Counted from the first letter of the stretch, positions 1,715-54,467 are shown. The stretch is DNA of 64,000 nucleotides from Candidatus Hydrogenedens sp. (GCA_049968235.1 JBMFRC010000009.1:64001-128000); one strand, 5' to 3'. Notes: generated from the letters alone by a model not told the origin. Numbers and translations: made by a program.

Positions 1715-3151
1715 ATGCCTAAAATCGCAATGATAGGAGCAGGAAGTATTGTTTTTTGCAAAACTTTATTTATGGACCTCGTTTCTGTACCTGCTTTTCA
1801 AGATGCAGAATTTTGGTTCATGAGTCCTACCCGAAAGAAATTAGAACGGATGAAATCCTTTGCTGACCGTGTGGTAAAAGATAACGGATTAAAGGTGAAA
1901 AACTATATTACTCAGGACCGTAGAGAGGCACTAAATCAGGCAGATTATGTAATTGCAATGCTTCAGATAGGAGGTGTGAATGCATTTAAATATGATTATG
2001 AAATCCCATTAAAGTATGGTGTTGACCAATGTATCGGCGATACAATGGGTCCGGGTGGAATTTTTAGGGCATTGCGAACAATCCCGGTGATGATGGATCT
2101 CGCTCGTGATATGCAGGAACTTTGTCCGCAAGCATATCTATTAAATTATGTAAATCCTATGGCAATGGTATGCTGGGCTTTAGGGAAAATTCCAGGACTA
2201 AAGTTTGTAGGTCTCTGTCATGGTATTCAAACAACGCTTGATTTGATTTCAGGTTATGTAGAGGTTCCCAAAAATGAAATTGATTATCTAGTAGCAGGTA
2301 TTAATCACATGGCTTGGTTCCTGCGTATTGAACATAAAGGGAAGGATTTATATCCTCTATTTAAACTCCGTTGTGAACAACCAGAATATTATGTAAATGA
2401 GAAGGTTCGCATTGAGGTTATGCGTCATTTTGGTTATTTTATGACAGAGAGTACAGGACATTTATCGGAATATATACCGTGGTTTCGTAGCCATGAAAGG
2501 ACATTAAAAACATATTGTGATGAACCTTCCTTTGGCGGAGAGTCCGGTGCATATTACAAATGGTGCAGACTAATAGCCGACCGACTAGAAAATGAAGATT
2601 TGTTAGTAAATGAACCGACAAGAATCACTCATCGAAGTGTTGAATATTGCTCCTATATATTAGAAGCATTGCAAACAGGGAAAACTTTCAAGTTTCAAGG
2701 AAATGTACGGAATGACCACTACATTACCAATTTACCAGATGGCTGTTGTGTCGAAATCCCTGTTTTTGCAGATAAAATAGGACTTCATCCAACACATATA
2801 GGTGCATTACCTCCTCAATGTGCAGGATTAAATTTAACAAATGTGAATGTCCAAGGTTTAACAGTAGAATCTGCAATTCAAGGAGACCCGGAACTGGTTG
2901 TTTCTGCCTGTGCTTTGGACCCCCTAACTTCTGCGTGCTTGTCTTTGAAAGAAATTCGTGATTTGGTGGCGGAAATGTTAGAAGCAGAGCAATCATGGCT
3001 TCCCCAATTTGCAGGGAAATCTCTGAAACCAACTCCGATAATATCCATTCCTAAAGATGTGCAGAGGGCAAAAGTGCCTTTGGACCCGGCTCTGGCTGTA
3101 GTTCATCGTTTTGGTGAATTAGCAGACAAGGCAAGTAAAACTACATCATAA
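1715..3151 (+). CDS. Glycoside hydrolase family 4 (NAD/Mn-dependent alpha-galactosidase/alpha-glucosidase, MelA/AglA-like)
   Basis: N-terminal KIAMIGAGS.VF Rossmann motif and the GLCHG catalytic-region motif typical of GH4; 478 aa. Confidence 0.8.
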   Translation: MPKIAMIGAGSIVFCKTLFMDLVSVPAFQDAEFWFMSPTRKKLERMKSFADRVVKDNGLKVKNYITQDRREALNQADYVIAMLQIGGVNAFKYDYEIPLKYGVDQCIGDTMGPGGIFRALRTIPVMMDLARDMQELCPQAYLLNYVNPMAMVCWALGKIPGLKFVGLCHGIQTTLDLISGYVEVPKNEIDYLVAGINHMAWFLRIEHKGKDLYPLFKLRCEQPEYYVNEKVRIEVMRHFGYFMTESTGHLSEYIPWFRSHERTLKTYCDEPSFGGESGAYYKWCRLIADRLENEDLLVNEPTRITHRSVEYCSYILEALQTGKTFKFQGNVRNDHYITNLPDGCCVEIPVFADKIGLHPTHIGALPPQCAGLNLTNVNVQGLTVESAIQGDPELVVSACALDPLTSACLSLKEIRDLVAEMLEAEQSWLPQFAGKSLKPTPIISIPKDVQRAKVPLDPALAVVHRFGELADKASKTTS

Positions 3152-10619: not shown

Positions 10620-12308
10620 TCATTTCACAGTATTTTGAAAATAATCACAACATTTTTTGATTTTCTTTGTCATTAATGTTGAACGCTCATATCCGCCTCG
10701 ATAAATATTTAATGTCTGTTTTGCCAATTCCAGTGGATTACTTCCTTCCAGATTATCTCGTTCAAATTTCGTAACAAGGGTAATAGGTTTTAAATATGAA
10801 TTTAATTCCCCATAGATTCGTATTTGTTCGTCAATTTCGGATAATAATTTAACCTGTTCACGTGCTTTTATAATCTTGCTATCCGCTATAGTATTTTTTA
10901 ATTGTTCTGTAATATGAATTCCCTGTTTATATTTTCCCGCCAATTCCTCAAAAGAATTTCGAAATTCCTTGTTCCATACCGCAAGAGTTTTTGCATCGGG
11001 AGTATTATAAAATTGGAAAAATTTGTGAAGATTATCCGATTCTGTTTGTTTATGGGGATTCACATTAAGATGTTCCAGCCACATTAACCGATAGGCAAAG
11101 CGTAGAAAATCTTTCTCATCAATTTCTCGACGAATAACGGGATAAAATTGCAGACAACCATCGGGAGCAAATTCCGAGATATGAACATTTACATTATCCA
11201 TATCGGGTGTAAGTTCATGCTGAATTAATTGTTTCTTCTTACGCGTGGAGAAAAGCCAATCAATTGCTTTGAGGACCTGCTCAGGTTGTATCTTATCTAA
11301 AGGATGAACATCGGAAGACTTTGAAGAAATATCCATCTTAAAAGAACGTTCTCTCATTTCGATAGCACAATTTCCTACGCCATAGGGACCTGTTTCGCGA
11401 AAATGCACATAGCCAACAGACACAAGCATTACAGGACATTTTACTGCCGATGCAAGATGCATAGTGCCTGTATCATTGGTTACTAATAAATGGGAGCGTT
11501 TTAATAATCCTGCCAACTGTGGAATGGTCGTTTTACCAAAAAGCGGAATTGCCAGACCGGGAACTTCCTTTTGAAATCTTTGACCCAATTCCGCTTCTGA
11601 TGGAATACCTACAAGAAATATCCGTGCCCTGCACTTTTCATGTAACTTTTTCCCTAATTGTGCAAAATATTCCGCAGGCCAACGTTTATTCGTTTCACTG
11701 GCACCCAGTTGCATACATACAACAAAATCTTCGGGTGTAATATGATACTCCGCAAAGAGATGGTCTGTAAATTCCATTGCATTAGAATTCACCTCAAAGG
11801 TGAGTTCTTTTACAGGTTCGGGTATCGGTTCATAGAGTTTGAATATATCGCATAAGTTCAAATCATTATAATCCCGAGAAAGAACGCTGGTAAAGAAGTA
11901 AACCGTCCACGGTCCCCGTAATGTGAATTGCCAATCTTCGGATAAATGTGCCCCGATAACTTTAGGAATTTGTGCCAATTTTAATAACAAAGCGGAAGAT
12001 GTGCTGTGAGTTATGTTATAAGCAATATCAAAGTTCCGTTGTCGTAAATCAAGAATTAACTTTTCTACCTCTTTGTATGCATTTAAATATCGGTCTGAAT
12101 CTCTCGCAATCATATCGGAGAAAATGGGGTCTTCTTGATAAATAATATAATCATTTACATCCGTATTGGCTTTAATAACCTCTTCACTCATTGCCCGTAT
12201 CATAACAGTAATATGGGCATCTGGATATTTAATACGAATCTGACGGAATAGGGGGGTGGTCTGAATTGTATCGCCAATCCTTGCAGTTTGCAAAACAAGT
12301 ATTTTCAC
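10620..12308 (-). CDS. Glycosyltransferase family 9 (heptosyltransferase-like) with a C-terminal extension of about 220 aa
   Basis: MKILVLQTARIGDTIQTTPLFRQIR..HITVM is the classic GT9 N-terminus; the C-terminal domain is of unknown function. Confidence 0.75.
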   Translation of the reverse strand: MKILVLQTARIGDTIQTTPLFRQIRIKYPDAHITVMIRAMSEEVIKANTDVNDYIIYQEDPIFSDMIARDSDRYLNAYKEVEKLILDLRQRNFDIAYNITHSTSSALLLKLAQIPKVIGAHLSEDWQFTLRGPWTVYFFTSVLSRDYNDLNLCDIFKLYEPIPEPVKELTFEVNSNAMEFTDHLFAEYHITPEDFVVCMQLGASETNKRWPAEYFAQLGKKLHEKCRARIFLVGIPSEAELGQRFQKEVPGLAIPLFGKTTIPQLAGLLKRSHLLVTNDTGTMHLASAVKCPVMLVSVGYVHFRETGPYGVGNCAIEMRERSFKMDISSKSSDVHPLDKIQPEQVLKAIDWLFSTRKKKQLIQHELTPDMDNVNVHISEFAPDGCLQFYPVIRREIDEKDFLRFAYRLMWLEHLNVNPHKQTESDNLHKFFQFYNTPDAKTLAVWNKEFRNSFEELAGKYKQGIHITEQLKNTIADSKIIKAREQVKLLSEIDEQIRIYGELNSYLKPITLVTKFERDNLEGSNPLELAKQTLNIYRGGYERSTLMTKKIKKCCDYFQNTVK

Positions 12309-12310
12309 AG

Positions 12311-14095
12311 TTATTTCTCCCGTAGCAGATTTTCACCAAAAATACGAACTTCATTCAAATACCAGAATACCTGAACAGGTAATGGAACATTATCATCCAG
12401 AATAGGCAAATGTTTATTAATTTCCTCCTGTAAAAAGGGTATGTCCTGAGGTAGTTTTGCAAGCCATTGTCCCAGAGGGCTATCTTTTCCATATCGTTCG
12501 ATGATTTCTCCTACAGTTCTCTGTATACGCATTCCCTTCCTCATGATTTTTCCACCATAATATTCTTTAATATAATCCAACATTTGATTGGCACGGTGCT
12601 CATAAGTATGCTCTTTTAAAGCCCGTTTTTGTGCATTTTGGGCTATCTGCTTTCTTTCTTCTTCATGTTGCAAAAAATAGTCTATTTTATTCCGAAGTGT
12701 TTTTAAGTCTGTATAGGTAGGGATTTCATTTTGAGTATCAAATAAATTTTCTAATCCCTTACAGGGGTCGCAAAGTTGAAATCCACCTGCTGATGCAATT
12801 TCAAATACGCGGGGATTGATAGCATCAGCCTCCGGGTCAACTCCTTCATGAATGACACTGGAATGAAGGTTTAGGTTAATCTTTGACCCAGCCACAATTT
12901 TCATATATTCTTCTGTATTAAACCCTTTATTCCCTTCTACCACATGAGGGAGCAATTCTAATTCATTCCAGTTTACTCCCCATATTTTTAAGTTGTAATC
13001 AGTTAGTCCTTTTAACATCTTAATACGATTATAATATCCTGCCCCTGCAAAGGATAAATCACACCTGTATTTTTTCTCTTCGTCTGGACTTAAAGAGACA
13101 GGTGCATGAAGTTCCGGATCACATGCGGTAAATATAGGGAAATGGCAATTACAACCAATAGCATCCAATTTGTTATCAAACTCTCCGGGTTGAATATGAA
13201 AAAATAAATTATAAAAAGGTGCTATTTCTTTCCAGTAACTAAGGTGCCGCCAGTTCTCCACAAACCAGAATGCAGTTACAATTCCTCGTTCATTCAATCT
13301 TGAAACAAATAAGTTTGTAACGGGAGCCTGCGCCATAACAATACAAATCTCCGGCTGAAATTCTAATACTTGAGCCAGGCACCATTCAGAAAGAAACTTT
13401 GTATAGAAATCTTCAAGCGAATGAGCAATTCGGGTTGTTTTCAGAGTTTTGCCGATAGCATTAAAGACATTCCACGCTATTTCAGTATCTACAAGAAGTG
13501 TTTGATGACCCAATTTCCGAAAAGCCTGATTTAAATATCGAGTAATAGGAAGAGAACCTCCATACATAGGACCTACAATGGCAATGTTGAAGTGTTGTCG
13601 GTTGAAGCATTCCCGGGATATTCGTTTAATTAACATTTCGCAAAATTCAGGATAAATCCGACTTACAACAGGATGGAAAAAAGGTTGAGGTATTTTATCA
13701 AGATAATCATTGAAGAAAGAATCATTAAAAAGGCAATCTAATGTATCAGGAATGGCAAGTAATAGGTCATCAGGTAATAGATTATTTTGAATGGCTGTAA
13801 ATGCTACGTCTTTATCGGGTTCAATGACAATAATTTTATATTCTTTCTGAATGAGTTCCTGGATATGATAACCCAATCCCAGCCCAACAACAACTACAGG
13901 CCGCTTTTTATCCAGAGAAGAACCTTCTACTAATTTTTTGGCTTCCTCTATGGGATTGTATTGGCTGTGATAAAGAAGTCCTGTTATACGAATTGTTTTT
14001 ATACCTTTGCGTTTTTCGACCAATTCAACGCGTTCACTCCTATAATTTTCAGGAATTTCTTTTCTCCATTCTGCAATAGATTTAAACATCTTCAT
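12311..14095 (-). CDS. Maf-like (DUF115/MptE-like) protein fused to a CgeB-type glycosyltransferase domain
   Basis: The N-terminal region resembles motility-accessory-factor/DUF115 proteins; the C-terminal region resembles CgeB/Glyco_trans_1_2 (…KEHTYEHRANQMLDYI). Confidence 0.55.
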   Translation of the reverse strand: MKMFKSIAEWRKEIPENYRSERVELVEKRKGIKTIRITGLLYHSQYNPIEEAKKLVEGSSLDKKRPVVVVGLGLGYHIQELIQKEYKIIVIEPDKDVAFTAIQNNLLPDDLLLAIPDTLDCLFNDSFFNDYLDKIPQPFFHPVVSRIYPEFCEMLIKRISRECFNRQHFNIAIVGPMYGGSLPITRYLNQAFRKLGHQTLLVDTEIAWNVFNAIGKTLKTTRIAHSLEDFYTKFLSEWCLAQVLEFQPEICIVMAQAPVTNLFVSRLNERGIVTAFWFVENWRHLSYWKEIAPFYNLFFHIQPGEFDNKLDAIGCNCHFPIFTACDPELHAPVSLSPDEEKKYRCDLSFAGAGYYNRIKMLKGLTDYNLKIWGVNWNELELLPHVVEGNKGFNTEEYMKIVAGSKINLNLHSSVIHEGVDPEADAINPRVFEIASAGGFQLCDPCKGLENLFDTQNEIPTYTDLKTLRNKIDYFLQHEEERKQIAQNAQKRALKEHTYEHRANQMLDYIKEYYGGKIMRKGMRIQRTVGEIIERYGKDSPLGQWLAKLPQDIPFLQEEINKHLPILDDNVPLPVQVFWYLNEVRIFGENLLREK

Positions 14096-14120
14096 AAGAT
14101 ATGCCTCTTACTTCAATCTT

Positions 14121-17100
14121 TCATAATGATTCCAATCGTTTTAATTCCTTTCCCAGTACATTATCACTCCCAAATAACGCTATATGCTCCTTTATCATAT
14201 TTACTGCTTCCTTTACCCTGTGATGTTGAGATAGGAAAGTCGAATACTTCAGGATAAGTGAAACATCTCCGGGGTAGAAATCTATAAACGCTTTAATTGT
14301 TTGTTCCGCAGATTCGATATAGCCTAATTGTTCGCATACATAAATATATAGGTCAAGAATCCCCGGATAATCATAACTGTTCGAAAAGGCATAATTTAAG
14401 TGTTTATAAGATTCGTGCATATTCCCTGATTGTAAATATCCCTGTCCCATGGCAAGGTGCAGACGAATATTCTCAGGTTCTTCTTGGAATACTTTTCCCA
14501 ATAATTCTAACGCTGTTTGCGTTTGATTCATTGCTAATAATAGCAGTCCATAATCTATATGTAATTCATTATTTTTTTCAATTTCTAATGCTTTCAGATA
14601 ACATTCTTGTGCTTTTACAAGGTTACCCGTGTGAGCATACGCTTTCCCTTCAATACTGTATCGTTTCCATAGAGGCAAGTCGCTTTCTGTTTTTGCAAGT
14701 TCAAATAACAGGTCCGTTCTCCCTGCTTCCAATAATTTGCGAACCTGTTCATTGATTTCATTTATATCCGAAGGGAGTTTTTGTGCAATAACGATATATT
14801 GGAAGGTGCGGAACACCTCATATTCTTCGTCGCTGATTTTATCAATACAAATTTTACCCATGTGTAAATTCCCATTTTCATCACGGGGTATTATGTCCTC
14901 AGATGCTATGGAAAGAGGTCCAATAGCATTAATCAGGAGACCTGTTTTACGAATAAATTCTTGTAAAGTATCTCTCGTGTAAAATTTCAAATGAGTTATA
15001 TCCTGAATTCCGGAATCACGATAGTCCCACCTCCCAAGAGATAAACCAAAAATAACACCCCAATATTGGACATTAGGAATGCTGATGATAACATAACCAT
15101 ACGGTTTTAGATAACGAATTAAATTTCGCAATGCTTTCTCGGGGTGTTCTGTATGTTCTAATACATCACAACAGGTAATTACATCAAAATAATCATTTTC
15201 AAATGGGAAATCATCCTTCTCAATATTTCCAATAAAAACTTTATCTAAAACCTTTTTGGCAATTTCAGCAATGTCAGGTACAATTTCTATTCCTACCACT
15301 TCCTCCACACCCAATTCACGTTTCATTGCTAATCCAAAATTCCCTGTAGCACAGCCAATATCGAGAACCTTTTTTGTCCCATCGGGAATATATTTTAAGA
15401 CCTCTCTTCTCTCAGAAGAGTAATAGTTTATAGGTTTAATTTCCAATCGTTTCGCTTTTGTTGTATCAATCTTGAAAATTTCCTCTACCTTCTTAATAAT
15501 CTGTTGGCACCTATGGTAATAAGTATGACTCTCTAATACCTTTTGTTGTCCCTGCCTTGCGATTTGCTCTCGTTCCTCTTTATGCTCCAGATAATACCGA
15601 ATTTTTTCAATTAAGTCCTTTTCATTTTCATAAATAACAAGATCTTTACCATCCTCAAACAATTCCAGAATACTATCTGCAGGGTCTGTAACTAGTAAAG
15701 CACCTCCTGCCATACCTTCAAATACTCTCATGTTTAAATCGTAATTAATTGCAGAATTCACAACAATTTTACTTCTTGAATACACTTCCCCCATTTCAAG
15801 AGGCCATTTTTTACCAATATAATGATTTGGAAATATTTCGGCTACTTTCATTAATAACCTTCTTCTTTTATCTCCTTCATCAGGCGATAAACTACCTACA
15901 TAAGAAACATCTATGTCACGAGACAATTCTTTTTGGGGATATAGTTCAGGACAACATGCAAGAGGTAGCCAGAAGACATAACGGACACCCTGCTCCTTAA
16001 AAAGTTTGACATGACTTTGTTGAGCCAGAAACACAATGTCAAAATGCTTTGCTATTTCCAACCGTGTTTGAAAGTCCAGGTGGGTATCAATAAGATACGC
16101 CACACGAGGAATATTGAGCATGTCTATCATAGGGTCAACTGTTTTAAGACCGGAATCAACATAGATATAAAAATCTGATGGATATCCTGATGGAATACCT
16201 GCTAAAAGATTCTCTATGCGTTTATCGCCAAAGGAGGTAGGAATCCTTTGCGGAGGATATGGTGGAGGATTTTGAAATCCCCACTTATATAACAAATCTT
16301 CAGGACATCGAAAACCCGATGTTATAACATCATGGTCTTTTTCAAAGGCAAATTCAAAATATCGGGCTGTTGTGTGGGGTGAAGTTATATAATCTAATAT
16401 AATGCGATAGTGCTTTTTCGCTGTTGATGGTTTTGTTATCTGAATAGAAGTGGTTTCTTTTCCACTTTGTTTCAATATTATCTTCTGCCAATTATCAACA
16501 AATTGAGATATAGGAAATTTCTTTTGAACAGTTTCTCTACCTCGTGTTCCTATTTCCCTGGCTAAGTCCGGATTTCCTAAGAGGAGTTCCAGATATTTGC
16601 GTAGCTGTGCTGGGTCAAAAGAAGTAAAGCCATCTACTCCATTTGTAATAGGAGAAGAACGATTGTTTAGAGCAACCACTGGCATACCACAAGCCATTGC
16701 CTCTAATGTAGAAAGATTATATCCATCTTCAAATTCCTGACGGGTGATATGTAATAGACAGCGGTTCAAACGATATGCAGACAGCAATTCTTCAAAGTTT
16801 ATAGATGGCTTTGAATTTTCAACCCCCGGATTTTCTCCCACAATAATATTGGGTAATCCCTTGCAGAGAGCCTCCTGTAATGGGAAATCAAACATCCAGT
16901 TCCGCACCTGCATATAATTGCCTACTCGCAAAATTACTTCTTTACTCCCCGCATAGCCTCCATATTCTTCTATATCAATTCCGGGTAGAACCACATACCC
17001 CGGATAACCATAATCATCTCTTTTAGAAGGGGAAATAAATACGAAAGTGAATCGTTCAGATAGGATATTTATGACCTTCTCAAAATTATTAACAACAAAA

Positions 17101-17426
17101 ACATCGTTCTTTGGGAGTGTTGTTTTCAGATAGGTTTTTCTGTTATGACATACAAGAATTTTAGGGCAATTTGCTTCGCGAATATCCCAGGCATTTGTTT
17201 CATTATGTGCAATAACAATATCATAATAGCCTTTAAAAACTCGTTCCCGCCACTCATTTTCAGGGACTTCATGTAAATTTTCAGGTATAGGTCGAAATTC
17301 CGTTTTCCACTTTCGAGCAAGCAGTCCCTCGCTATATAACCCCAAATCCATCTCAAACCCTGTTTTTGCCATCAAACACATGTAAGGCTCATGAAAATTA
17401 AAGGTTAAGATTTTAAGTTGTCCCAT
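14121..17426 (-). CDS. 1101-aa multidomain protein: GT-B glycosyltransferase, CgeB-like glycosyltransferase, class I SAM methyltransferase and C-terminal TPR repeats
   Basis: GT4-like EAMACGMPVV motif; CgeB-like segment (VGSLSPDEGDKRRRLL..., ESHTYYHRCQQII); methyltransferase motif I VLDIGCATG; TPR-like helices at the C-terminus. Confidence 0.7.
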   Translation of the reverse strand: MGQLKILTFNFHEPYMCLMAKTGFEMDLGLYSEGLLARKWKTEFRPIPENLHEVPENEWRERVFKGYYDIVIAHNETNAWDIREANCPKILVCHNRKTYLKTTLPKNDVFVVNNFEKVINILSERFTFVFISPSKRDDYGYPGYVVLPGIDIEEYGGYAGSKEVILRVGNYMQVRNWMFDFPLQEALCKGLPNIIVGENPGVENSKPSINFEELLSAYRLNRCLLHITRQEFEDGYNLSTLEAMACGMPVVALNNRSSPITNGVDGFTSFDPAQLRKYLELLLGNPDLAREIGTRGRETVQKKFPISQFVDNWQKIILKQSGKETTSIQITKPSTAKKHYRIILDYITSPHTTARYFEFAFEKDHDVITSGFRCPEDLLYKWGFQNPPPYPPQRIPTSFGDKRIENLLAGIPSGYPSDFYIYVDSGLKTVDPMIDMLNIPRVAYLIDTHLDFQTRLEIAKHFDIVFLAQQSHVKLFKEQGVRYVFWLPLACCPELYPQKELSRDIDVSYVGSLSPDEGDKRRRLLMKVAEIFPNHYIGKKWPLEMGEVYSRSKIVVNSAINYDLNMRVFEGMAGGALLVTDPADSILELFEDGKDLVIYENEKDLIEKIRYYLEHKEEREQIARQGQQKVLESHTYYHRCQQIIKKVEEIFKIDTTKAKRLEIKPINYYSSERREVLKYIPDGTKKVLDIGCATGNFGLAMKRELGVEEVVGIEIVPDIAEIAKKVLDKVFIGNIEKDDFPFENDYFDVITCCDVLEHTEHPEKALRNLIRYLKPYGYVIISIPNVQYWGVIFGLSLGRWDYRDSGIQDITHLKFYTRDTLQEFIRKTGLLINAIGPLSIASEDIIPRDENGNLHMGKICIDKISDEEYEVFRTFQYIVIAQKLPSDINEINEQVRKLLEAGRTDLLFELAKTESDLPLWKRYSIEGKAYAHTGNLVKAQECYLKALEIEKNNELHIDYGLLLLAMNQTQTALELLGKVFQEEPENIRLHLAMGQGYLQSGNMHESYKHLNYAFSNSYDYPGILDLYIYVCEQLGYIESAEQTIKAFIDFYPGDVSLILKYSTFLSQHHRVKEAVNMIKEHIALFGSDNVLGKELKRLESL

Positions 17427-17465
17427 GTTTCCTTTCTATTCTTTTATCTATGAAAATTAAACATT

Positions 17466-18101
17466 TTAGGTTGTTTTAATAATATATTGGATTGCCAATT
17501 GTTTTAACTGACCCACGATTTCAGGTTCTTTTTCTGCAAGAGGAGCTAATTCATATTCCAGCAAGTCCCCAAGACCAATACAATCGTTATTTTCGAGAGA
17601 TTTATATGCTTCCTCAAGAACATGATTCAATTCGTCATGATGTTCTTTTATCTTCCTTATAATAGGATTCTCTTCCGTTACATGGGAACTCAATATATTG
17701 ATTATAAGTGCCTCTCTTTTTTTAATTTCACTCCATATCTCCGAAAGTTTCTGAAAAGGGTCAAATCCTTCATCCGGATTTTCACTCTGAAATACCCGAG
17801 CAATTTCACAACATAAATCACTTAATTCCGGTGAATATAATTCCAAATCCGCAATACCTTCCTCCACCAATTGGTAAATTGGATAGGTATTAATTTCTAA
17901 TGTCCGTATATTAGAGATATTCATTTCTTGAATAGATTCTAATGACCTACCGGGATATACTTCTTGCTCATTAACTCTTAACTTTACCATTGCCAGTTGT
18001 TGACTATTAAGAAAATTCATAATCTCGTTCAGAGCCGATTGAAGTGTATCCGGCGAATTGGAAAATTGAAATCCTTTTACTCCATCAATGAGCACTTCCA
18101 T
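17466..18101 (-). CDS. Hypothetical acidic protein translationally coupled to csrA (its start overlaps the csrA 3' end)
   Basis: An ATG at 18101 gives [10 protein letters not shown]...; 17 nt overlap with csrA; no recognisable domain. Confidence 0.4.
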
Positions 18102-18336
18102 CACGGGGGTCTCCTTTGTTGGGTTGGAAAACGGGAATATCCTTCGGGGGTTCTACCCGTGCTGCCTCTTCATTTTCCGCTTTGATTGATAGATATACCT
18201 CTTTCCGATGAACAGGAATAGAACGCGGTGCTTCTATCCCTATTTTGACCTGATTTTCCCGTAATTCAAGCACTTTGATTTCGATATTATCGCCAATCAT
18301 TATGCTTTCATCTTCCTTACGCGTAAGCACAAGCAT
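18085..18336 (-). CDS. csrA: Carbon storage regulator CsrA (RNA-binding)
   Basis: [48 protein letters not shown] matches the CsrA consensus. A GGAGG RBS sits inside the fliW 3' end, with one nt between the fliW stop and the csrA ATG. The listed ORF's N-terminal extension was rejected. Confidence 0.85.
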
Positions 18337-18337
18337 A

Positions 18338-18796
18338 TTAGACCTCCTGTCTATTAGTTGGTTGTTCATTTTGGGGTTGCGCAAGGAACCATTGAACAGG
18401 GTAATCCGTTCTGTCCAATACCATTTGCTTTGCTAACCTTGTTTTTGTATTTATTACAATGGGGGCTCTTAAATTTGTCCGGATTTTGGTCGGGTCTTCC
18501 GGAACCACAAGTAATGTATATATGGAAATCTCCTGAGGAGAATCGGCTTGTAATTCATGTAAATCCTGGGGAGTAAAAGAAACCTGATAATCTGGCAAAA
18601 CCTGCAAAGGTTCTAACAAAAGAAAAGCCAATGCACCATCTTCTATAGACTGAAGCCACCAAAGAGGGCTATCTTTAGGTCCTGGCAATAACATAAACTT
18701 CTGACAATTCTGAAATCCTAAAATAGGTTTTACAAATAGAAGAATTTGATTCTCATCAATTTCTATCTCACCGAATCGTGTTGTTTGTAGTTTCAT
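18338..18796 (-). CDS. fliW: Flagellar assembly factor FliW (CsrA antagonist)
   Basis: [23 protein letters not shown] matches the FliW N-terminal consensus. The start was taken at the internal ATG at 18796; the upstream extension of the listed ORF is AT-rich and hydrophobic and is likely not coding. Confidence 0.8.
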
Positions 18797-19076
18797 ATAA
18801 TTCTGTTCATTCCTTTTTGTTTTCAGTATGCAATATTTTATTTTACAATAACAACTCATTATTATAAAAATGTGTAATATCAAATAAACATTTGTAAAAT
18901 ATATCGATATATAATATAATTTACACTTAAATGTTAACATCAAGGAAGTAGTGTGTTTGGAGAAGAAAACCAGATATTGATAAAGGAGATGTTAAGATGC
19001 GACATACTGAAAAAGTAAATGATTAAAAAGAATATAATGCGTTTAAAGAACTTATAAAAGAAAACTTATCAAGGCA

Positions 19077-19367
19077 GTGGATGATGAGGATTATGAACGG
19101 TTGAAGTTCATATTCTCTATGTTAGAAATGCTTTTCCAGATAAAGGAAAGACTTAATATTTCAGAGAAAGAGAGCAATGAGTTTGATGAACAAGAATTAG
19201 AAGTGATAGAGACGGAAACAGGCAAAGATGTTAAAAAGAACAGAAAGAAAAGAAGTAAACCCTCAGAGGATAAAAAGGATGAAATTCAAGAAACGAAAGA
19301 AGATATGGGTAAAGAAAATATAATTGAAGAAGAGGAAGATGTAATTAAAAAAGAAGCGGTAACATAG
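19077..19367 (+). CDS. Small acidic/lysine-rich low-complexity protein; possibly the N-terminal part of the downstream gene, separated from it by an in-frame TAG
   Basis: GTG start; K/E-rich; the same reading frame continues through TAG(19365-67) into the Mrr_N-like ORF. Confidence 0.3.
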   Translation: MDDEDYERLKFIFSMLEMLFQIKERLNISEKESNEFDEQELEVIETETGKDVKKNRKKRSKPSEDKKDEIQETKEDMGKENIIEEEEDVIKKEAVT

Positions 19368-19460
19368 GAAGAGGAGAAATCATCAAAGAAAAAGCAATCT
19401 CCACCAGAGAAATTAGCTCGCGGTTTAAAAACACCTGAAAGAGCCTATGTCCTACCGGTA

Positions 19461-19868
19461 GTGGATTCCTTAATGGAATTTGGGGGAACTGCTCCTCGAA
19501 AAGAAGTTGTCACAAGGGTATTTGAAAAAATGAAACATATCTTAAAAGATTATGATTTAGAACCCATGTCATACAATAAATATGTCCCTCGCTGGAAAGA
19601 TACTTTACATTGGGTAAGATTACACTTACTTGAAAGGGGAATCCTTGAGAAAGGAACTGAAAAAGGTATTTGGACTTTAACAGAATATGGTAAAGCCTAT
19701 TACGCTATGCACAAAGATAGAACAGAAGAAAAGAAAGAGGTTGATATTCCTCCATACTCCGAAAAAAGTGAAGAAATGACTAGTGAAGGAACTTTTTCTG
19801 CTCCCGAAAAGCAGGAAGAAAATATAGAACATAACATTAGTGAACCAAGAGATATCTTAAATCAGTAG
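19461..19868 (+). CDS. Winged-helix protein with an Mrr_N-like (restriction-system N-terminal) domain
   Basis: …RWKDTLHWVRLHLLERGILEKGTEKGIWTLTEYGKAY resembles Mrr_N winged-helix domains. Domain-like sequence (AYVLPVVDSLMEFGG) begins upstream of the listed Met. Confidence 0.5.
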   Translation: MDSLMEFGGTAPRKEVVTRVFEKMKHILKDYDLEPMSYNKYVPRWKDTLHWVRLHLLERGILEKGTEKGIWTLTEYGKAYYAMHKDRTEEKKEVDIPPYSEKSEEMTSEGTFSAPEKQEENIEHNISEPRDILNQ

Positions 19869-19960
19869 ATAGAAATTATAGAATAAAAAATAAATCCCGA
19901 TAATTTTACCTCTTTCCCAGAAATACAATCCTTTATTGACATGAAAGTATATCCATAAAA

Positions 19961-19990
19961 AAGCCTCTCGTAAAAAGAGAGGCTTTTTTA
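19961..19990. terminator. Bidirectional rho-independent terminator hairpin
   Basis: aaaagcctctc-gtaaaaa-gagaggctttttta: a GC-rich stem with a T-run on both strands, lying between the convergent Mrr_N-like gene and tRNA-Leu. Confidence 0.7.
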
Positions 19991-20077
19991 TGGTGCCCGG
20001 GAGGAGAATTGAACTCCTACCCCATTTCTGGGACCAGATCCTTAGTCTGGCGCGTCTGCCATTTCCGCCACCCGGGC
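19991..20077 (-). tRNA. tRNA-Leu, type II (long variable arm); the anticodon loop CUAAGGA reads as anticodon AAG
   Basis: Manual fold of the reverse complement: acceptor GCCCGGG/CCCGGGC, D-arm GGCGGAAATGGCAGACGCG, anticodon stem CCAGA/TCTGG, 14-nt variable arm, T-arm AGGAG-TTCAATT-CTCCT, discriminator A, encoded CCA. Confidence 0.8.
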
Positions 20078-20185
20078 GCATATATTTGAAAAGTGTTTAA
20101 ATTCTATAACAAACAGCAGAAAAATTTAAAGTTAAGGTTCCTTTTAATGTCAGACCTATCGTACTCGTTAGTTTCGTCAGATTTA

Positions 20186-21322: not shown

Positions 21323-22045
21323 ATGAAGATGCTAAAAATTATCTTAACTTCTGTAATAATTCTTTTTATACTGACTACTTTTCTTACTTGCACTACAAAT
21401 GGCAGAGAAGAAATTCAAAAGCGAATACCTGTTGGTAAATGTACACCTCCACCCCGTGGTGATGGTTGGATAAATTTATTCTCAGCAGAAAACCAATCTA
21501 AATGGGAAAATGTAACATCCGACAACAAAAAAACAGGATTTGAATTTATGCCTGACAATATATTACATATTTTTGGTTCTAAATCAGGAGGTTATATTGC
21601 ATATATGGGTGAAGAAATAACCGATTTTGAGTTACATATTGAATTTCAATTAACACCAAAAGCGAACAGCGGTGTTTTTTTCCGTTCCGACCTAAAGGAC
21701 CCTGTTCAGAAAGGATTTGAAATACAGGTTTTGGAGGATTATGGACAATCTCCTAACAAACAAGGTTCCGGTTCTTTATACGATGTAGCCACCCCTATGT
21801 TTAATATGTGCTTACCTCCCGGTGAATGGAATTCTTATGATATTACTTGCAAGGGGAGTCATCTCATCGTAATAATGAATGGTTGGAAAGTTATTGATGT
21901 TGATATTTCTCTTATGACAATGCCAATCGGAAAATTTGATACACCCTTAGCGCAACTACCTCAAAAGGGATATTTACAACTTCAGGACCATGGCGGTGAA
22001 GTATGGTATCGAAACGCTTATTATAAAAATATTGCAGGTAATTAA
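21323..22045 (+). CDS. DUF1080 (3-keto-disaccharide hydrolase family) secreted protein
   Basis: Signal peptide; GWINLF..W, GFEIQVLEDYG, GEWNSYDI...G, GYLQLQDHGGEVWYRN are characteristic DUF1080 blocks. Confidence 0.75.
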   Translation: MKMLKIILTSVIILFILTTFLTCTTNGREEIQKRIPVGKCTPPPRGDGWINLFSAENQSKWENVTSDNKKTGFEFMPDNILHIFGSKSGGYIAYMGEEITDFELHIEFQLTPKANSGVFFRSDLKDPVQKGFEIQVLEDYGQSPNKQGSGSLYDVATPMFNMCLPPGEWNSYDITCKGSHLIVIMNGWKVIDVDISLMTMPIGKFDTPLAQLPQKGYLQLQDHGGEVWYRNAYYKNIAGN

Positions 22046-28555: not shown

Positions 28556-29134
28556 ATGCGTTCCTTAGAGGATTGGGAATTGGTTGCATTAGCAAAACAA
28601 GGAAATCGTGAAGCGTTCCACAACCTTGTAGAACGATACAAATCCCCCATTTACACCCTTTGCCTCTATTTAACAAGAAATGTCCAGAATGCAGAAGACC
28701 TTGTGCAAGAAACATTTATCCGTCTATATAAAAATTTGAACCATATAGAACCTAAGGCTCAATTTAAAACATTTATCCTGGGGATTGCGAGAAATCTTGC
28801 TCTGAACCAGATTCGGAACGAAAAAAGAAAGAATAATTTTTTAGCACGGCTATTTAATAAAATAAATTCCAATTATGAGGAACAAGTAAATTATAAATCT
28901 GAAATGTGGCCTCCCGATGAAAAACAAGAATTTACCGCTGTTGTTCAGCAATGTATGTTAGAATTATCTACTGAACATCGAGAGATATTAATATTAAGAG
29001 AAACCCAGGGACTTGACTATGAAAGTATTGCTAAAATTCTGGGTTGCCGGGTAGGAACGGTTCGCAGTCGTTTAGCAAGAGCAAGAGCACAACTCCGAAA
29101 GATAATACTTGAGAAAGGGATAACAATACAATGA
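28556..29134 (+). CDS. ECF (sigma-70 family, sigma-24 type) RNA polymerase sigma factor
   Basis: Region 2 (…FHNLVERYKSPIYTLCLYLTRN..EDLVQETFIRLY) and region 4 (YESIAKILGCRVGTVRSRLARAR). Confidence 0.8.
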   Translation: MRSLEDWELVALAKQGNREAFHNLVERYKSPIYTLCLYLTRNVQNAEDLVQETFIRLYKNLNHIEPKAQFKTFILGIARNLALNQIRNEKRKNNFLARLFNKINSNYEEQVNYKSEMWPPDEKQEFTAVVQQCMLELSTEHREILILRETQGLDYESIAKILGCRVGTVRSRLARARAQLRKIILEKGITIQ

Positions 29135-29727
29135 CACATTTAACAGATGAACAAATTTCAGAATTACTGGATGGTTTCCGTGTCCTCAATCAGAAACAAC
29201 AAGAACATCTACAATCCTGTCCTGAATGTATGAAAAAATTAAAAGAATGGCGAAGCATTTCCCAATGTGTTCAAAATCTACCCCTTCCACAAGTATCTGA
29301 TGAATTTACATCTCGAATTAACTATAAAATAAATTCTATCCGGGAAGATACACCTAAAAGAGTTTTTCCATCAATCCAATGGAAATATACATTCCTTATC
29401 TCTTCTATTATGGCTATCCTACTTATTGTTTTTGGGAGTTTAATTATTAATTATAATAATTATGAAAATACAAACATATTAAATCATGGTAATGTTCAAC
29501 CTGCTTCTGCCGTAGGTCCGATTGCTAGTAATAATGGTACATCCACGAATAACCTTGCTATAACAGAAGAAATTCCTGGTGAAGAAAATATATTAAATAG
29601 CATTAGCGAACAATACATCAATTCAGAACCTTTTGATGAAGAATTACATAACATTACTATCTCAGAGTTGCTTTTGTCCCTCGCAGAAGAGACAGAAGAG
29701 TATAATATTTCAGATGTATCTCTTTAA
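29131..29727 (+). CDS. Anti-sigma factor (zinc-finger N-terminus, single TM)
   Basis: Overlaps the sigma-factor stop; H..C..C motif (HLQSCPECMKK); TM helix near residue 90. Confidence 0.6.
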   Translation: MTHLTDEQISELLDGFRVLNQKQQEHLQSCPECMKKLKEWRSISQCVQNLPLPQVSDEFTSRINYKINSIREDTPKRVFPSIQWKYTFLISSIMAILLIVFGSLIINYNNYENTNILNHGNVQPASAVGPIASNNGTSTNNLAITEEIPGEENILNSISEQYINSEPFDEELHNITISELLLSLAEETEEYNISDVSL

Positions 29728-29745
29728 TGCGAACAAATATACATA

Positions 29746-30471
29746 TTGGAGAATGATTTTATGAAAAAATGTATAACAATAATCCTTTTTCTGATTGTGC
29801 TTTTATCCTATTCCAATATAGCAACAGCACAACCTCCTGACACAATGCGTCCTGATTTAGTAAACCCACCTCATCCGGAGGGCTTTCAGCAAGGTATACC
29901 TGCCCCACCTGGGGATAGGAATCCTCCACCACTACCAGGTCCTGGTATATATCCTGAACCCATAGGACCGCCTCCAGAAGGAGATTTACCTGCTCGGGAA
30001 ATACTGGAACAAGTGCTTTTAGCAAAAGTAGCGAAGCAACTAAATCTCAATGATGAACAAACAGTTATACTCGTTCGGAGATTTTACGAGCAGAAAGAAG
30101 TCTTATCCGAAAAAATTCAGCAACGAAACAATTTAGCAAATGAATTACATAAACTAATCCGTGATAAAACGAAAGGGAATCCTAAAGAGTTAGAAGAAAA
30201 ATTCTCCCGTCTCCTAAAAATGGATATGGAATTAGCAGAGTTAAGACAGAAATGGATTGATAATATTTCTATGGAATTACCTTTAGAGTCCAAAATCCAG
30301 TTATATCTACTTATTTCCGATTTCGAGAACGAAGTACGTAAATTTCTCCGTAAAGCCTACGATTGGAAACAAAATAGATTTCCAGATAATAGAGGTGGTT
30401 TAATGCCTCCGGAACAACGTCGCAGTAGGTCTCAAAAACCCAACAATAATCCCGATACAGAAAGTCAATAA
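29746..30471 (+). CDS. Periplasmic Pro-rich protein with LTXXQ-like motifs (Spy/CpxP-like)
   Basis: Signal peptide, Pro-rich linker, helical region with LNLNDEQ / LSEKIQQ repeats resembling Spy/CpxP-family LTXXQ motifs. Confidence 0.4.
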   Translation: MENDFMKKCITIILFLIVLLSYSNIATAQPPDTMRPDLVNPPHPEGFQQGIPAPPGDRNPPPLPGPGIYPEPIGPPPEGDLPAREILEQVLLAKVAKQLNLNDEQTVILVRRFYEQKEVLSEKIQQRNNLANELHKLIRDKTKGNPKELEEKFSRLLKMDMELAELRQKWIDNISMELPLESKIQLYLLISDFENEVRKFLRKAYDWKQNRFPDNRGGLMPPEQRRSRSQKPNNNPDTESQ

Positions 30472-33237: not shown

Positions 33238-34530
33238 TTATTTATTGAAAAAATTTTTTAAATAAGGTTTATTTATTTCCAGAAGTTCATTTAATAATTC
33301 CCTGCATTTTTTTGCATCCGGCATTAAGGGATGACTTAATAAGGCTTGAAAAGCAAGTTCACGGTCTCCCTTTACTGCAGAATGGACAGTTAAAGTTTCG
33401 TAAGCCTTAATAATCTGCATCAAACCCCGAATCGAATGCTCCGGGTGCGATTGAGGAATAGAATGAGCACCATCTTTATCTATAATGGCAGGAATTTCAA
33501 CAGATACATCATCATCAAAAGTGGGAATGGCTCCATTATTTCTGCAACATACAATTTGCCGCGATTTTTTGTCATTTTCTATAGCATCGATTACCATTAG
33601 TGCCGCAGTTGAATAGTGAGCACCACCTCTCTTACTCAATTCTTCCGGTTTCTCTTTCAATTCAGGATTGGAATATTTATCAAACAATTTTTTCTCAATC
33701 TCCAACACTTCTTCTCCCCGTGTCTTTTCTTTTTTCTTTAACTGATTCAAAACAGATTCTGTCGAATAGTAGTATTGAAGGTAGTAATTACAAAACATAT
33801 TCAAACTTTTCATTGCTTCCAACATATTATTACGGGTTGTTTCGTCCTCCCACTCTTCTTCTGCATGCTCCCAGAATTTCTGTAATACTTCTTGAGTAAT
33901 ATCAACTCCCTGTTTTTTAAATTTACGGACCCATGATAAATGGTTCAATCCAACATAATCCAACTCAATTTCTTCCGGCTCTCCTCCTATATACTTTACT
34001 ATCTCCATTATCATACCTATAGGCACATTGCATAGACCAATTGTCCGAATTTTGCTATATTTAATTACTGCTTCCGTATTAATCCCTGCTGGATTTGTAA
34101 AATTAATGAGGAAAGCATTCGGACATAATTGTTCCATTTTTTGAGCTATCTCTAAAATTACAGGAATAGTTCGTAAGGCGCAGGCAAATCCACCAATTCC
34201 TGTTGTCTCCTGTCCTATAATTCCATATTTCAGCCCCAATTTTTCATCATTTATCCGAGCCTGCATCTGACCAACCCGTATTTGCGTTAATACATAGCGT
34301 GCATCTTTTACTGCATCAGCAATATGTGTCGTCTTATATATCTTACAGGACGAACTATAACGCTGTGCCAATCTCTCCGAAAAAGAATGATTAATCTCCA
34401 ATCTCTGTTCGTTTGTGTCCATCAACCAAATTTCATCAAATAAAAATTTGCCTTCTCTTGCAAATATTCCATCAATTAATTCCGGGGTATATGAACTACC
34501 ACCACCAATTACTGCAAATTTCATATCCAA
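33238..34530 (-). CDS. Glycoside hydrolase family 4 (6-phospho-beta-glucosidase CelF/LicH-like)
   Basis: MKFAVIGGGSSYTPELI Rossmann motif and the GLCNVP GH4 motif. Confidence 0.8.
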   Translation of the reverse strand: MDMKFAVIGGGSSYTPELIDGIFAREGKFLFDEIWLMDTNEQRLEINHSFSERLAQRYSSSCKIYKTTHIADAVKDARYVLTQIRVGQMQARINDEKLGLKYGIIGQETTGIGGFACALRTIPVILEIAQKMEQLCPNAFLINFTNPAGINTEAVIKYSKIRTIGLCNVPIGMIMEIVKYIGGEPEEIELDYVGLNHLSWVRKFKKQGVDITQEVLQKFWEHAEEEWEDETTRNNMLEAMKSLNMFCNYYLQYYYSTESVLNQLKKKEKTRGEEVLEIEKKLFDKYSNPELKEKPEELSKRGGAHYSTAALMVIDAIENDKKSRQIVCCRNNGAIPTFDDDVSVEIPAIIDKDGAHSIPQSHPEHSIRGLMQIIKAYETLTVHSAVKGDRELAFQALLSHPLMPDAKKCRELLNELLEINKPYLKNFFNK

Positions 34531-43647: not shown

Positions 43648-44079
43648 ATGAAAAAAATCTTTTTATTAATGGTATTGGTTCTCGGTCTTGTGTCTCTTTC
43701 CGGTTGTAATCCAGACACTCGTTTGAATGGTGTTTGGGAAGGTTCACAGTGGGAAAATGGTAAAGAGATGGAAAATAGTCAAATTACAATTGAATTTAAA
43801 AGTGGTTCTTTGAAAATTTCGCAGAATGTAGGTGCTATTAGTTTCAATTATCAGGGCTCGTATGCAACATATATCGAAAAGTTCCCTAATCAAATATTTT
43901 TTACAATTAATATAGACAATAATATAGCTATTATACGCAAAGGTATTTATCGTTTTAATCTTCCCATGTTTGGTAAAACACTCTATCTATCTGTAACACA
44001 ATCCGATGAAGAGAACTATCCTCCCAAAGAGAGATTAAATCCCGATGTAGGACCTGTGTATGTACTGAAAAAGAAGTAA
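43648..44079 (+). CDS. Lipoprotein, hypothetical
   Basis: Signal peptide with a lipobox LSGC; 143 aa. Confidence 0.45.
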   Translation: MKKIFLLMVLVLGLVSLSGCNPDTRLNGVWEGSQWENGKEMENSQITIEFKSGSLKISQNVGAISFNYQGSYATYIEKFPNQIFFTINIDNNIAIIRKGIYRFNLPMFGKTLYLSVTQSDEENYPPKERLNPDVGPVYVLKKK

Positions 44080-44089
44080 GGAACTCATC

Positions 44090-45241
44090 TTAAAAAGAAG
44101 CCAGGGGATTAATAGGCTTTTTATGTGTTTTATGTTCAATAAAACAACATCCGGGACAGGTTGCCCAAAGATGATTTTTACATGCCTGTCGGAATTGACG
44201 CATAACCGGATTATTCCATAATTCTTTTAAGGATGCGTTTTTGATATTTCCAATTTTACATATCCAGCAAGGATATACATCGCCTGTTCGTCCAATGAAT
44301 AAAGTATTCCATGCATTTCTACATTCAAAATCATTTAAATCAATTCCTATTGTATAGTAGTCAATAATCGAAGAAATAGGCATTCGAGGAAGACGCAGTT
44401 GTATCCCTAATTTTGTCGCTTCTGTAATCGTTTCTGTTAACGATATTGTCAATTTATCTCTATCAATTTTGGGATACTGAATATGTTCCGCTTTATATAC
44501 CGAAGGGTCTACATCCCCCAAACCGGGAAGGTCAAGAGATCTACTTTCTGTTACTAAATTCAGGACATCTGCCCCTAATTCCTTTATCAAAGCAGGCATT
44601 TGAGGTAAAATCTCCACATTATCCTGCTGAATAACGGTTGTTATATGTATCAATGGACACTGTTTTTTCGCCTTCTCACGATATTCTCGTAAAAATTTAA
44701 TCCCTGTGATAGTTCGTTCAAAAGCCCCTTTCATCTTACGGATATTATCATGTTTTTCTCCGGGTGCTTCAATAGATGTCCCTGCAAAATTAAGTCCTTT
44801 CCCTCCCAACCTTCTGGGTGCTAATTCTACCAGTTCTTCTGCTCTTTCCTCCGTAATCATTGTCCCATTTGAAATAAAATGTGTTCTTGCTCTTCTACTT
44901 GCATAGGAGAACAATTCCATAAAATCCTTGCGTACAAAAGGTTCTCCACCGGTAAATGTAATCAAACTCCATGAATGTATTTGTGAAATTACATTTTTCC
45001 ATTCTTCTGTAGTTAACTCTCCTTCCATTTGCTGTTTAATAGGGACATTTTCCAGCCAATCAATATATTGGCACATTTTACAACGAAGGTTGCAACGACG
45101 GGTAAGTTCGATATAGTAATGCCATGCAGGAAATGAATAACCGCTTTTAAAATAATTATATGGAATAGAACTATAAAAGCGTTGAAGTATATCGTAAAGT
45201 GAGGCAATACCCCAGCGTAATACTGAATTTTTACATTCCAT
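44090..45241 (-). CDS. Radical SAM protein with a C-terminal SPASM/twitch Cys-rich domain
   Basis: CNLRCKMCQY (C-x3-C-x2-C) plus C-terminal Cys clusters (CWICK...CKNHLWATCPGCCF). Confidence 0.75.
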   Translation of the reverse strand: MECKNSVLRWGIASLYDILQRFYSSIPYNYFKSGYSFPAWHYYIELTRRCNLRCKMCQYIDWLENVPIKQQMEGELTTEEWKNVISQIHSWSLITFTGGEPFVRKDFMELFSYASRRARTHFISNGTMITEERAEELVELAPRRLGGKGLNFAGTSIEAPGEKHDNIRKMKGAFERTITGIKFLREYREKAKKQCPLIHITTVIQQDNVEILPQMPALIKELGADVLNLVTESRSLDLPGLGDVDPSVYKAEHIQYPKIDRDKLTISLTETITEATKLGIQLRLPRMPISSIIDYYTIGIDLNDFECRNAWNTLFIGRTGDVYPCWICKIGNIKNASLKELWNNPVMRQFRQACKNHLWATCPGCCFIEHKTHKKPINPLASF

Positions 45242-53698: not shown

Positions 53699-54467
53699 AT
53701 ATGAGACCTCTGAATAAGTCATTCGAGTTAGCTAGTATGTATAAAGATATTATATACGAGAGGGGGTGAAAAAAAAATGAAACGAGATAAGAGAGAAAAG
53801 TGCTATAAATATAGCAGAAGTATTTTGGGTTAAATAACAAAGCAAGGGAAAAATAAAAATGAAGGAAAATCAACGTAGTATGGTAAAAAAGATAGAGCAA
53901 ACAAGTTTTATAGATTACGAGATGTTCCATCAGAAACCGCCTCGTCGTAGATGTTCTTTGAGGCAGATGCAAGAAGTAATACTATGGAAGGAACTTGGGT
54001 AGAGGGCGTATAGGGAGGAGTATATAAGGTGAACAGGGGAGAACGAAGACTTACGTCCTTACTATTTTATGCATTATTGAGCAGTGCGTGATAATGTCTA
54101 TGTGCTTTTGTGGCTATTACATCCAAATCTTTACCTTTTCTTTTCTCAGTATTTTCTTTGGTTGATTATATTTTTTCCCCACTACCAAAGAACACGGAGG
54201 TGCATGGAGGATACGGTGGGGTACAGTGAGACATAGGGAGAGGAGTATATCATTTCTTCTGAATGACTAAATATATTTGAAATGGATGTATGATTAGAGG
54301 TATGCATAGATACAAAAAGATAGAAAACGGACAGAAAAAACAAAATAAATTGATAAAAGTAGAAATACAGACTTTTGTATTTTAATTTCTCATCGGGATT
54401 TTATCTCGTAAAAATATATATAATTTATACCATTACCTCTTACACCACTTTTTCAGAGGTCTCATAT
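53699..54467. other. 769-bp non-coding element bounded by perfect 16-bp terminal inverted repeats (ATATGAGACCTCTGAA / TTCAGAGGTCTCATAT): candidate MITE or large structured ncRNA
   Basis: Left inverted repeat at 53699-53714, right at 54452-54467. No ORF of 60 aa or more on the plus strand. Internal direct repeat TAGGGAG(A)GGAGTATAT at 54011-26 and 54234-50. Confidence 0.5.

Follow-up and report, generated by a model that had tools for sequence, protein, structure and literature searches.

We analysed a 64,000-nucleotide (nt) window of a Candidatus Hydrogenedens sp. genome (GCA_049968235.1, JBMFRC010000009.1:64001-128000), in which the genes of the flagellar assembly factor FliW and of the regulator CsrA head a compact operon on the minus strand; positions are counted from the first letter of this window. 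The fliW gene (18338-18796, ATG at 18796, stop at 18340-18338) encodes 152 amino acids (aa), and csrA (18085-18336, ATG at 18336, stop at 18087-18085) encodes an 83-aa long form of CsrA with a C-terminal extension. They are followed by a gene for a 211-aa protein of family DUF8042 (17466-18101, ATG at 18101, with an in-frame GTG at 18104) and by three genes for large enzymes: a 1101-aa multidomain protein with two glycosyltransferase (GT) modules, a methyltransferase domain and tetratricopeptide repeats (TPR) (14121-17426), a 594-aa putative glycosyltransferase with MafN-like, DUF3880 and Glyco_trans_1_2 regions (12311-14095) and a 562-aa GT9 protein with a C-terminal extension of ~200 aa (10620-12308). 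A promoter-like element, TTGTTA-N16-TGCATACT (18825-18854, minus strand), is located 28 nt upstream of the fliW ATG. Six tightly packed genes thus sit behind one conserved promoter-like element.

From fliW onward, the junctions between genes measure 1, −17, 39, 25 and 2 nt. The csrA ATG lies one nucleotide past the fliW stop codon and is preceded by aGGAGGtctaat; the open reading frame (ORF) of the DUF8042 gene starts 17 nt inside the 3′ end of csrA and is preceded by AAAGGAG. With regard to the choice of this start, the 212-aa GTG form has an exact database record and the 211-aa ATG form has none. An earlier annotation made from the DNA alone (here, the sequence-only reading) had given the coordinates of the 211-aa gene, the 1-nt gap, the 17-nt overlap and the co-directional order of the genes, and all of them proved exact. 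The upstream limit of 18943 that it gave to the operon has to be moved, as this position is only the TTG start of the longest ORF and the fliW ATG is at 18796.

For comparison, 100 loci were gathered by exact look-ups and by scans of genome and metagenome collections. Dereplication left 84 loci with a DUF8042 gene; since a peptide pattern and a best-80 cut determined which loci were included, the proportions of locus classes among them are biased. In 55 of the 84 (module loci), fliW and/or csrA is located directly upstream of the DUF8042 gene and the same transferase genes follow downstream where the contig continues. In another 14 (filament-type loci), the DUF8042 gene is no more than 8 kb away from fliS, fliD or flagellin, and the remaining 15 are mostly on contigs shorter than 4 kb. 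The order fliW-csrA-DUF8042-GT/methyltransferase/TPR-MafN/CgeB-GT9 is kept despite DUF8042 identity of 33-42% and unrelated flanks, which argues for selection on the unit as a whole.

The closest named genome locus (L003, Candidatus Hydrogenedens terephthalaticus) carries the same six genes, with protein identity of 87-94%. Named DUF8042 proteins of the module type come from metagenome-assembled genomes of Candidatus Hydrogenedentes/Hydrogenedentota, save for three bins labelled Nitrospirales. The latter (L006, L007 and L008) are titled 'uncultured Nitrospirales bacterium' in ENA, a label that is unconfirmed and probably a taxonomic mis-assignment, since the operon of L007 shares 74-86% identity with that of the window.

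Spacing varies between lineages. Most module lineages have a 20-nt overlap of fliW and csrA where Hydrogenedens has a 1-nt gap; from csrA to the DUF8042 gene the distance is usually 11-36 nt. The 17-nt overlap at this second junction was seen only in the genus Hydrogenedens and in one other lineage, with CsrA there having 83 aa versus the usual ~73. The 1101-aa enzyme is kept directly after DUF8042 in module loci, and the junction between the two, typically 2 nt, is the tightest in the operon. In several module lineages DegT aminotransferase genes precede fliW.

The element upstream of fliW belongs to a family with the consensus cTTGC-N17/18-(G)TGCATACT(G), also written TTGC-N17/18-GTGCATACT, that we detected in ~38 dereplicated loci with GC content of ~35-65%. 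It is located 25-50 nt upstream of the fliW start, or 160-166 nt in four lineages. The sequence TGCATACT occurs once per 20-kb module locus, always upstream of fliW and on the coding strand. This position is shared by L003, L004, L007, L009, L015, L023, L026, L030, L033, L039, L040, L042, L056, L064, L073, L074, L092, L095 and others. The 64-kb window has four matches to TGCATACT versus 1.5 expected, and only the copy at 18825-18854 is upstream of fliW.

Judging by its geometry, the element would function as a promoter. By inspection it is unlike the sigma-28 and sigma-54 consensus sequences, and it is more conserved than would be expected of a housekeeping promoter of the ordinary kind. The element may instead represent an operator or a late-flagellar promoter specific to the lineage. 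A candidate sigma-28 promoter upstream of fliW (TAAA...CGATAT) was rejected because the motif was found nowhere but in the window strain, L001 and L002, and the latter two match the window exactly in that region. A generic scan for promoters and terminators performed at chance level (37 promoter-like sites versus 36 in shuffles).

The FliW and CsrA of the window look canonical. FliW matches Pfam family PF02623 with E-value 1.2e-35 (122 bits versus a cut-off of 25, residues 21-135) and stays below the NCBIfam equivalog cut-offs (e.g. 141 versus 208 bits). Its best homologue of solved structure is the FliW chain of the Geobacillus FliW-CsrA complex 5DMB (4.8e-23). CsrA matches PF02599 (1e-26) and the NCBIfam model NF002469 (93.5 bits, cut-off 73), and its best solved homologue is the FliW-bound CsrA chain of the same complex, to which it can be aligned through residue 61, with the VHRKEVY and AEN segments included. 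With 83 aa, the protein extends beyond ~61 aa and would be of the long form regulated by FliW.

The 211-aa protein had been described in the sequence-only reading as acidic and of unknown fold. Its predicted pI is indeed low (4.45), and the protein does have a family: precomputed hits assign it to Pfam DUF8042 (PF26154), with a predicted fold composed of an N-terminal beta-grasp domain and a C-terminal four-helix bundle. An exhaustive profile search (E ≤ 1e-3) produced relatives that form 197 representatives upon clustering at 50% identity, nearly all of them 200-213 aa long. In the alignments a signature near the C-terminus, D-x5-D-[LIV]-L-E-Y-E-L-x-P, has invariant or nearly invariant columns. 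Distant members also match TP0873_N (PF27299); presumably, TP0873 of Treponema pallidum adjoins fliD (TP0872).

The searches showed neither an NCBIfam match nor catalytic features in DUF8042, nor any similarity to flagellin. A scan of 48 members at E-values up to 10 revealed no recurrent Pfam family, and no mention of DUF8042 or TP0873 was found in the literature searched. There is also a short form of 144-146 aa without the beta-grasp domain, seen in L100 (10001-10441) and in proteins P0165-P0170. In L100 it is encoded downstream of fliD-fliS and of two ~560-aa GT9 genes, and upstream of a histidine kinase/response regulator pair.

Pfam supports the domain composition that had been proposed for the 1101-aa enzyme. 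A GT1-type domain (residues 213-283; GT-B, GT1/GT4-like) is accompanied by DUF3880 (4.1e-5) and a CgeB-like Glyco_trans_1_2 domain (456-644, 6e-44), by an S-adenosylmethionine (SAM) methyltransferase domain (675-830, 4.5e-24) and by TPR at 910-1008 and beyond. A counterpart in one Hydrogenedentota lineage (L009, 10628-11986, 452 aa) keeps only the methyltransferase and TPR part, so the two transferase modules are either dispensable or supplied elsewhere.

The 594-aa protein had been labelled Maf/DUF115-CgeB. The CgeB-like part of this label stands (DUF3880, 1.2e-4; Glyco_trans_1_2, PF13524, 3e-37) and the Maf part is marginal, as Maf_flag10_N (PF20157) scores 22.6 bits, below the cut-off of 23.5. 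The DUF115 part has to be dropped: no match to the MptE-like catalytic family PF01973 was found at E-values up to 0.01. Over residues 6-103 the protein shares 33-42% identity with the N-termini of true Maf proteins whose genes follow DUF8042 elsewhere, and this resemblance suggests a functional pairing between DUF8042 and the Maf N-terminal domain. A 611-aa homologue in L093, 37% identical to the 594-aa protein over 508 aa, passes the Maf_flag10_N cut-off with 34.4 bits.

In the 562-aa protein, GT9 (PF01075) is detected with E-value 1.4e-26. The match to the NCBIfam heptosyltransferase II model extends over residues 2-351 and leaves ~200 residues unassigned at the end, in line with the extra C-terminal part suggested earlier. 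The score of TIGR02195, 104.4 bits, is below its cut-off of 134.6, with other heptosyltransferase models further below theirs; the protein is therefore not a lipopolysaccharide (LPS) heptosyltransferase equivalog. In two flagellar loci, L093 and L100, the neighbours of DUF8042 include similar GT9 proteins of ~560 aa.

Outside the module, classical filament loci contain DUF8042 as well as enzymes of the same unusual types as those of the window. L024 has the order FliD-FliS-DUF8042-Maf followed by PseB- and NeuB-like genes, the Maf being a true MptE-like protein (PF01973, 6.9e-45) with a Maf N-domain. In L018, flagellin is divergent from DUF8042-DegT-...-NeuB-ATP-grasp-CMP-synthetase-MotA-MotB-PseB. 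L100 has FliD-FliS-x-x-GT9 (554 aa)-GT9 (568 aa)-DUF8042. In L093 a CgeB-like GT, a GT9, the 611-aa MafN/DUF3880/Glyco_trans_1_2 protein, a 566-aa GT9, DUF8042 and a FliT-like gene form a block that abuts FliS, FliD, flagellin and FlaG. The DUF8042 gene adjoins fliS or fliD in L020, L021, L022, L028, L034, L036, L038, L044, L045 and L048; in L018, L024, L044, L048 and L100 it has fliS and maf on either side or is a neighbour of flagellin. Transferase sets homologous to those of the window are found beside filament genes in L018, L024, L093 and L100, and no such neighbourhood was seen in the window or in the 55 module loci.

The location of DUF8042 in these loci bears on its possible role as an export chaperone. 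In enteric fliDST operons fliT follows fliS, and DUF8042 takes this very place, directly after fliS, in at least ten loci. It could then be a diverged FliS/FliT-type chaperone for flagellin or for the FliD cap, with glycosylation genes merely sharing the late filament loci; the predicted four-helix bundle of its C-terminal domain would fit. Moreover, hhalign sets the DUF8042 signature DLLEYELxP...W on the C-terminal LLxPLxEAW helix of FliS with E-value 0.012, but with a probability of only 3.6%, which is not significant, and homology to FliS was rejected. Neither FliS nor FliT appeared among Pfam matches of the 48 members at E-values up to 10 or among the top structural matches. L093 has DUF8042 in addition to a FliT-like gene, and filament loci keep a FliS of their own. 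We consider a chaperone of this type very unlikely.

The same loci help to judge whether DUF8042 could be a third component of the switch, one that binds FliW, CsrA or the flagellin mRNA complex, while the transferases would be unrelated envelope enzymes on a shared transcript. Such a role would be in agreement with the invariable adjacency of DUF8042 and csrA in the 55 module loci (coupled or with gaps from −17 to +36 nt) and with the acidic, non-enzymatic nature of the protein and its predicted beta-grasp domain and helical bundle; GT9, GT4 and CgeB-like families are, besides, common in envelope glycan synthesis. However, filament-type DUF8042 genes have no fliW or csrA nearby and are followed by Maf or GT9 genes, the tightest junction of the operon is the one between DUF8042 and the transferase gene, and in L093 the enzyme set and DUF8042 occur together beside flagellin. 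On balance, we find this explanation unlikely.

The sequence-only reading had pointed out that no flagellin gene is in view, and this holds for the window. Apart from fliW, Pfam searches of every sizeable ORF of the 64 kb detected no flagellar gene, and tblastn searches of the window with flagellin, FliD, FliS, FlaG and MotAB from related loci found none. The genus, in turn, has flagellin, as known from three assemblies: Data Set S1 of PMC11406978 lists fliC, fliG, fliN and fliW in 3 of 3 assemblies of Hydrogenedens terephthalicus (36.9% GC), and the supplement lists fliS in 2 of the 3. In the 179-genome Hydrogenedentota catalogue of that work (Text S1; Data Set S1, sheet 3), flagellar assembly genes are reported for 72% of genomes, with fliN in 116, fliC in 113, fliG in 108, fliW in 106, fliS in 94 and fliD in 85. 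Of 29 of these fliW genomes that were compared with the fliC list, 28 appear in it as well, and the one exception still has fliG, fliM, fliN, fliD and fliS. A paper on flagellin diversity names Hydrogenedentes among the flagellin-bearing phyla.

Two alternatives had been left by the sequence-only reading: a flagellin-glycosylation island with an unusual gene order, or recruitment of the FliW-CsrA switch to control another glycosylated surface structure (S-layer, pilus or sheath), in which case DUF8042 would replace flagellin as the FliW partner or CsrA target. Recruitment could explain why a DUF8042 gene that overlaps csrA is found where Bacillus has hag, next after csrA, and why no flagellin is near any of the 55 module loci. 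Also, as reported in Text S1 of PMC11406978, flagellar assembly genes are missing from ~28% of Hydrogenedentota genomes, and pilus genes are present in all. Its no-flagellum premise fails for the genus, though, because the H. terephthalicus assemblies list fliC, fliG, fliN and fliW, and fliW tracks fliC among the 29 fliW genomes compared. In addition, DUF8042 and the same enzyme types are found in fliD-fliS-flagellin loci elsewhere, and DUF8042 bears no similarity to flagellin. Recruitment is thus highly improbable, and the first of the two alternatives is favoured by L018, L024, L044, L048, L093 and L100. Flagellin directly downstream of the pair, an arrangement that in related genomes would have pointed to ordinary flagellin glycosylation, was observed in 0 of the 55 module loci within their flanks.

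We therefore think it probable that the six genes constitute a flagellin-modification operon of Candidatus Hydrogenedens, co-transcribed with a flagellin homeostasis switch; each of the other explanations is less likely. It most likely serves to decorate flagellin, in an unusual gene order that the sampled Hydrogenedentota lineages have in common. In such an operon, FliW and CsrA would tie flagellin translation to flagellin export, following the paradigm of B. subtilis and C. jejuni, with the flagellin gene itself presumably located elsewhere in the genome. Going by synteny in other lineages, the three enzymes would glycosylate flagellin in the cytoplasm before export. The TPR domain of the 1101-aa enzyme could hold the flagellin substrate, and the glycan may be methylated, since this enzyme carries a methyltransferase domain. 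The weakest step concerns DUF8042, whose most likely role would be that of a flagellin-side adaptor or chaperone for transferases with a Maf N-domain. Through co-transcription, the amount of modification machinery made would follow that of the flagellin regulators.

Several observations weigh against a flagellin-modification operon. Flagellin, fliD and fliS are absent from the 64-kb window and from the fetched flanks of the 55 module loci, and the link to flagellin is drawn only by homology and by synteny in other lineages. Neither a nonulosonic-acid pathway nor a true Maf catalytic domain was found in the window with Pfam, and spore-coat, exopolysaccharide and LPS pathways likewise employ CgeB-like, GT4-like and GT9 enzymes. 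For the DUF8042 bundle, structural matches were limited to generic or designed helical bundles, to which the failed comparison with FliS has to be added, and the choice of the 84 loci was itself selective. Finally, control of the operon itself by CsrA is unsupported. The GGA motifs anticipated for CsrA do occur inside the Shine-Dalgarno sequence at each junction, as they might in any ribosome-binding site. A second GGA upstream of the Shine-Dalgarno sequence of the fliW leader was seen in 19 of 32 lineages versus 14.4 ± 2.5 in shuffles; 97 of 2000 shuffles reached 19 such leaders, and so marginal an enrichment is not convincing.

A bolder proposal, which we offer tentatively and regard as doubtful, is that DUF8042 could be an unrecognised and widespread flagellin-specific adaptor to Maf-N and GT9 transferases and that, in Hydrogenedentota, CsrA would also gate translation of DUF8042 and of the transferases via the GGA of their Shine-Dalgarno sequences. 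If so, the FliW-CsrA checkpoint that senses export would also switch glycosylation capacity.

Outside a few pathogens, little is understood of how glycosyltransferases recognise flagellin as their substrate, or of how glycosylation is coordinated in time with translation and export. DUF8042, encoded between fliS and maf in some loci and behind csrA across the Hydrogenedentota sampled, is a concrete candidate for the missing adaptor, and the DUF8042/TP0873_N family acquires a functional setting that can be tested. With its fixed order, the fliW-csrA-DUF8042-transferase operon offers a natural case of regulators and modification enzymes on one transcript, and the near-invariant TGCATACT element could mark a lineage-specific class of late-flagellar promoters. 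Even if the genes were merely co-located, the annotation would still be useful for a candidate phylum without a cultured member.

Several other features of the window deserve mention. Downstream of the operon, the GT9 gene is followed by an 89-nt gap and a nitroreductase gene; upstream, at a distance of 1.7 kb, a nucleotidyl-transferase gene (Pfam) is on the same strand as the operon. Between the promoter-like element of the operon and a tRNA-Leu gene, the stretch 19077-19868 (plus strand) contains a 96-aa Lys/Glu-rich ORF without a family and a 135-aa ORF with Mrr_N only. Compared with positions 8100-8620 of L003 and L004, Mrr_N is 50-70% identical, the 96-aa ORF is unmatched in L003 and the flanks are ~90% identical; the stretch looks like a small variable islet. 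The tRNA-Leu(AAG) gene (19991-20077, minus strand) underlies a 74-aa ORF (19857-20081), which is therefore spurious.

Further along, a tmRNA gene (55469-55827, minus strand; tag ANQELALAA) is followed by an N6/N4 DNA methylase gene (54462-55415, minus strand). Two ORFs without a family are located at 56210-57505, and the GC content of the tmRNA region is raised to 41-45%; an integrated element may be present at the tmRNA gene. At 43648-45241, a radical SAM/SPASM enzyme gene (44090-45241, minus strand) is convergent with a 143-aa ORF without a family, a possible peptide-modification system. At 28556-30471 (plus strand), a gene of an extracytoplasmic function (ECF) sigma factor precedes co-directional 198- and 241-aa ORFs without a family match, candidates for anti-sigma or accessory proteins. 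Two glycoside hydrolase family 4 (GH4) glycosidases, an alpha-L-fucosidase, an arabinofuranosidase-like 788-aa protein and a 3-keto-disaccharide hydrolase are encoded at 1715-3151, 33238-34530, 58068-61779 and 21323-22045; the organism seems well equipped with enzymes for glycan degradation.

Both FliW-CsrA and flagellin glycosylation islands are, each separately, already well known. Maf islands are found in Campylobacter, Helicobacter (PseE), Aeromonas and Magnetospirillum, and to our knowledge no protein of the DUF8042 type has been reported from those that are characterised. A possible point in common with them is the putative Maf N-terminal domain of the 594-aa protein (a sub-threshold match), and in L024, L044 and L048 DUF8042 is encoded directly upstream of a true Maf together with PseB, NeuB and CMP-synthetase genes. 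In contrast to Maf proteins, the 594-aa protein carries a CgeB-like GT-B domain in place of the DUF115/MptE-like one, and the window has no nonulosonic-acid pathway. FlmG of Caulobacter and GmaR of Listeria are TPR-containing flagellin glycosyltransferases, and the TPR of FlmG binds flagellin. As far as their descriptions allow a likeness to be drawn, they have in common with the 1101-aa protein a fusion of TPR to GT-B in one polypeptide, encoded with flagellar regulators; the 1101-aa protein differs in having two transferase modules plus a methyltransferase, with TPR at the C-terminus. FliS and FliT resemble DUF8042 as small acidic helical-bundle proteins encoded after fliD/fliS, the slot that DUF8042 takes in filament-type loci, whereas DUF8042 has an extra N-terminal beta-grasp domain and no significant sequence or profile similarity to them. 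The Pfam family of the 211-aa protein, DUF8042 (PF26154), whose distant members also match TP0873_N (PF27299), has no assigned function.

The FliW-CsrA partner switch was described in B. subtilis (Mukherjee et al. 2011) and C. jejuni (Dugar et al. 2016; Radomska et al. 2016), as cited in PMC9481697. The window operon has in common with Bacillus subtilis fliW-csrA-hag that fliW and csrA adjoin or overlap, that CsrA is of the long form and closest, among solved structures, to the FliW-bound CsrA of 5DMB and that the host lineage is flagellated; it differs in having DUF8042 and three transferase genes after csrA instead of flagellin. In Treponema denticola and Bacillus the fliW-csrA pair is embedded in flgK-flgL according to PMC9481697, whereas the pair of the window is not and has its own promoter-like element instead. 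What is new is that a single conserved operon, lacking flagellin, joins the switch and the modification genes. Also new are the set of non-Maf enzymes (a Maf-N region on a CgeB-like transferase, long GT9 proteins and a GT-GT-methyltransferase-TPR giant), the flagellar association of the DUF8042/TP0873_N family and the conserved promoter-like motif upstream of fliW.

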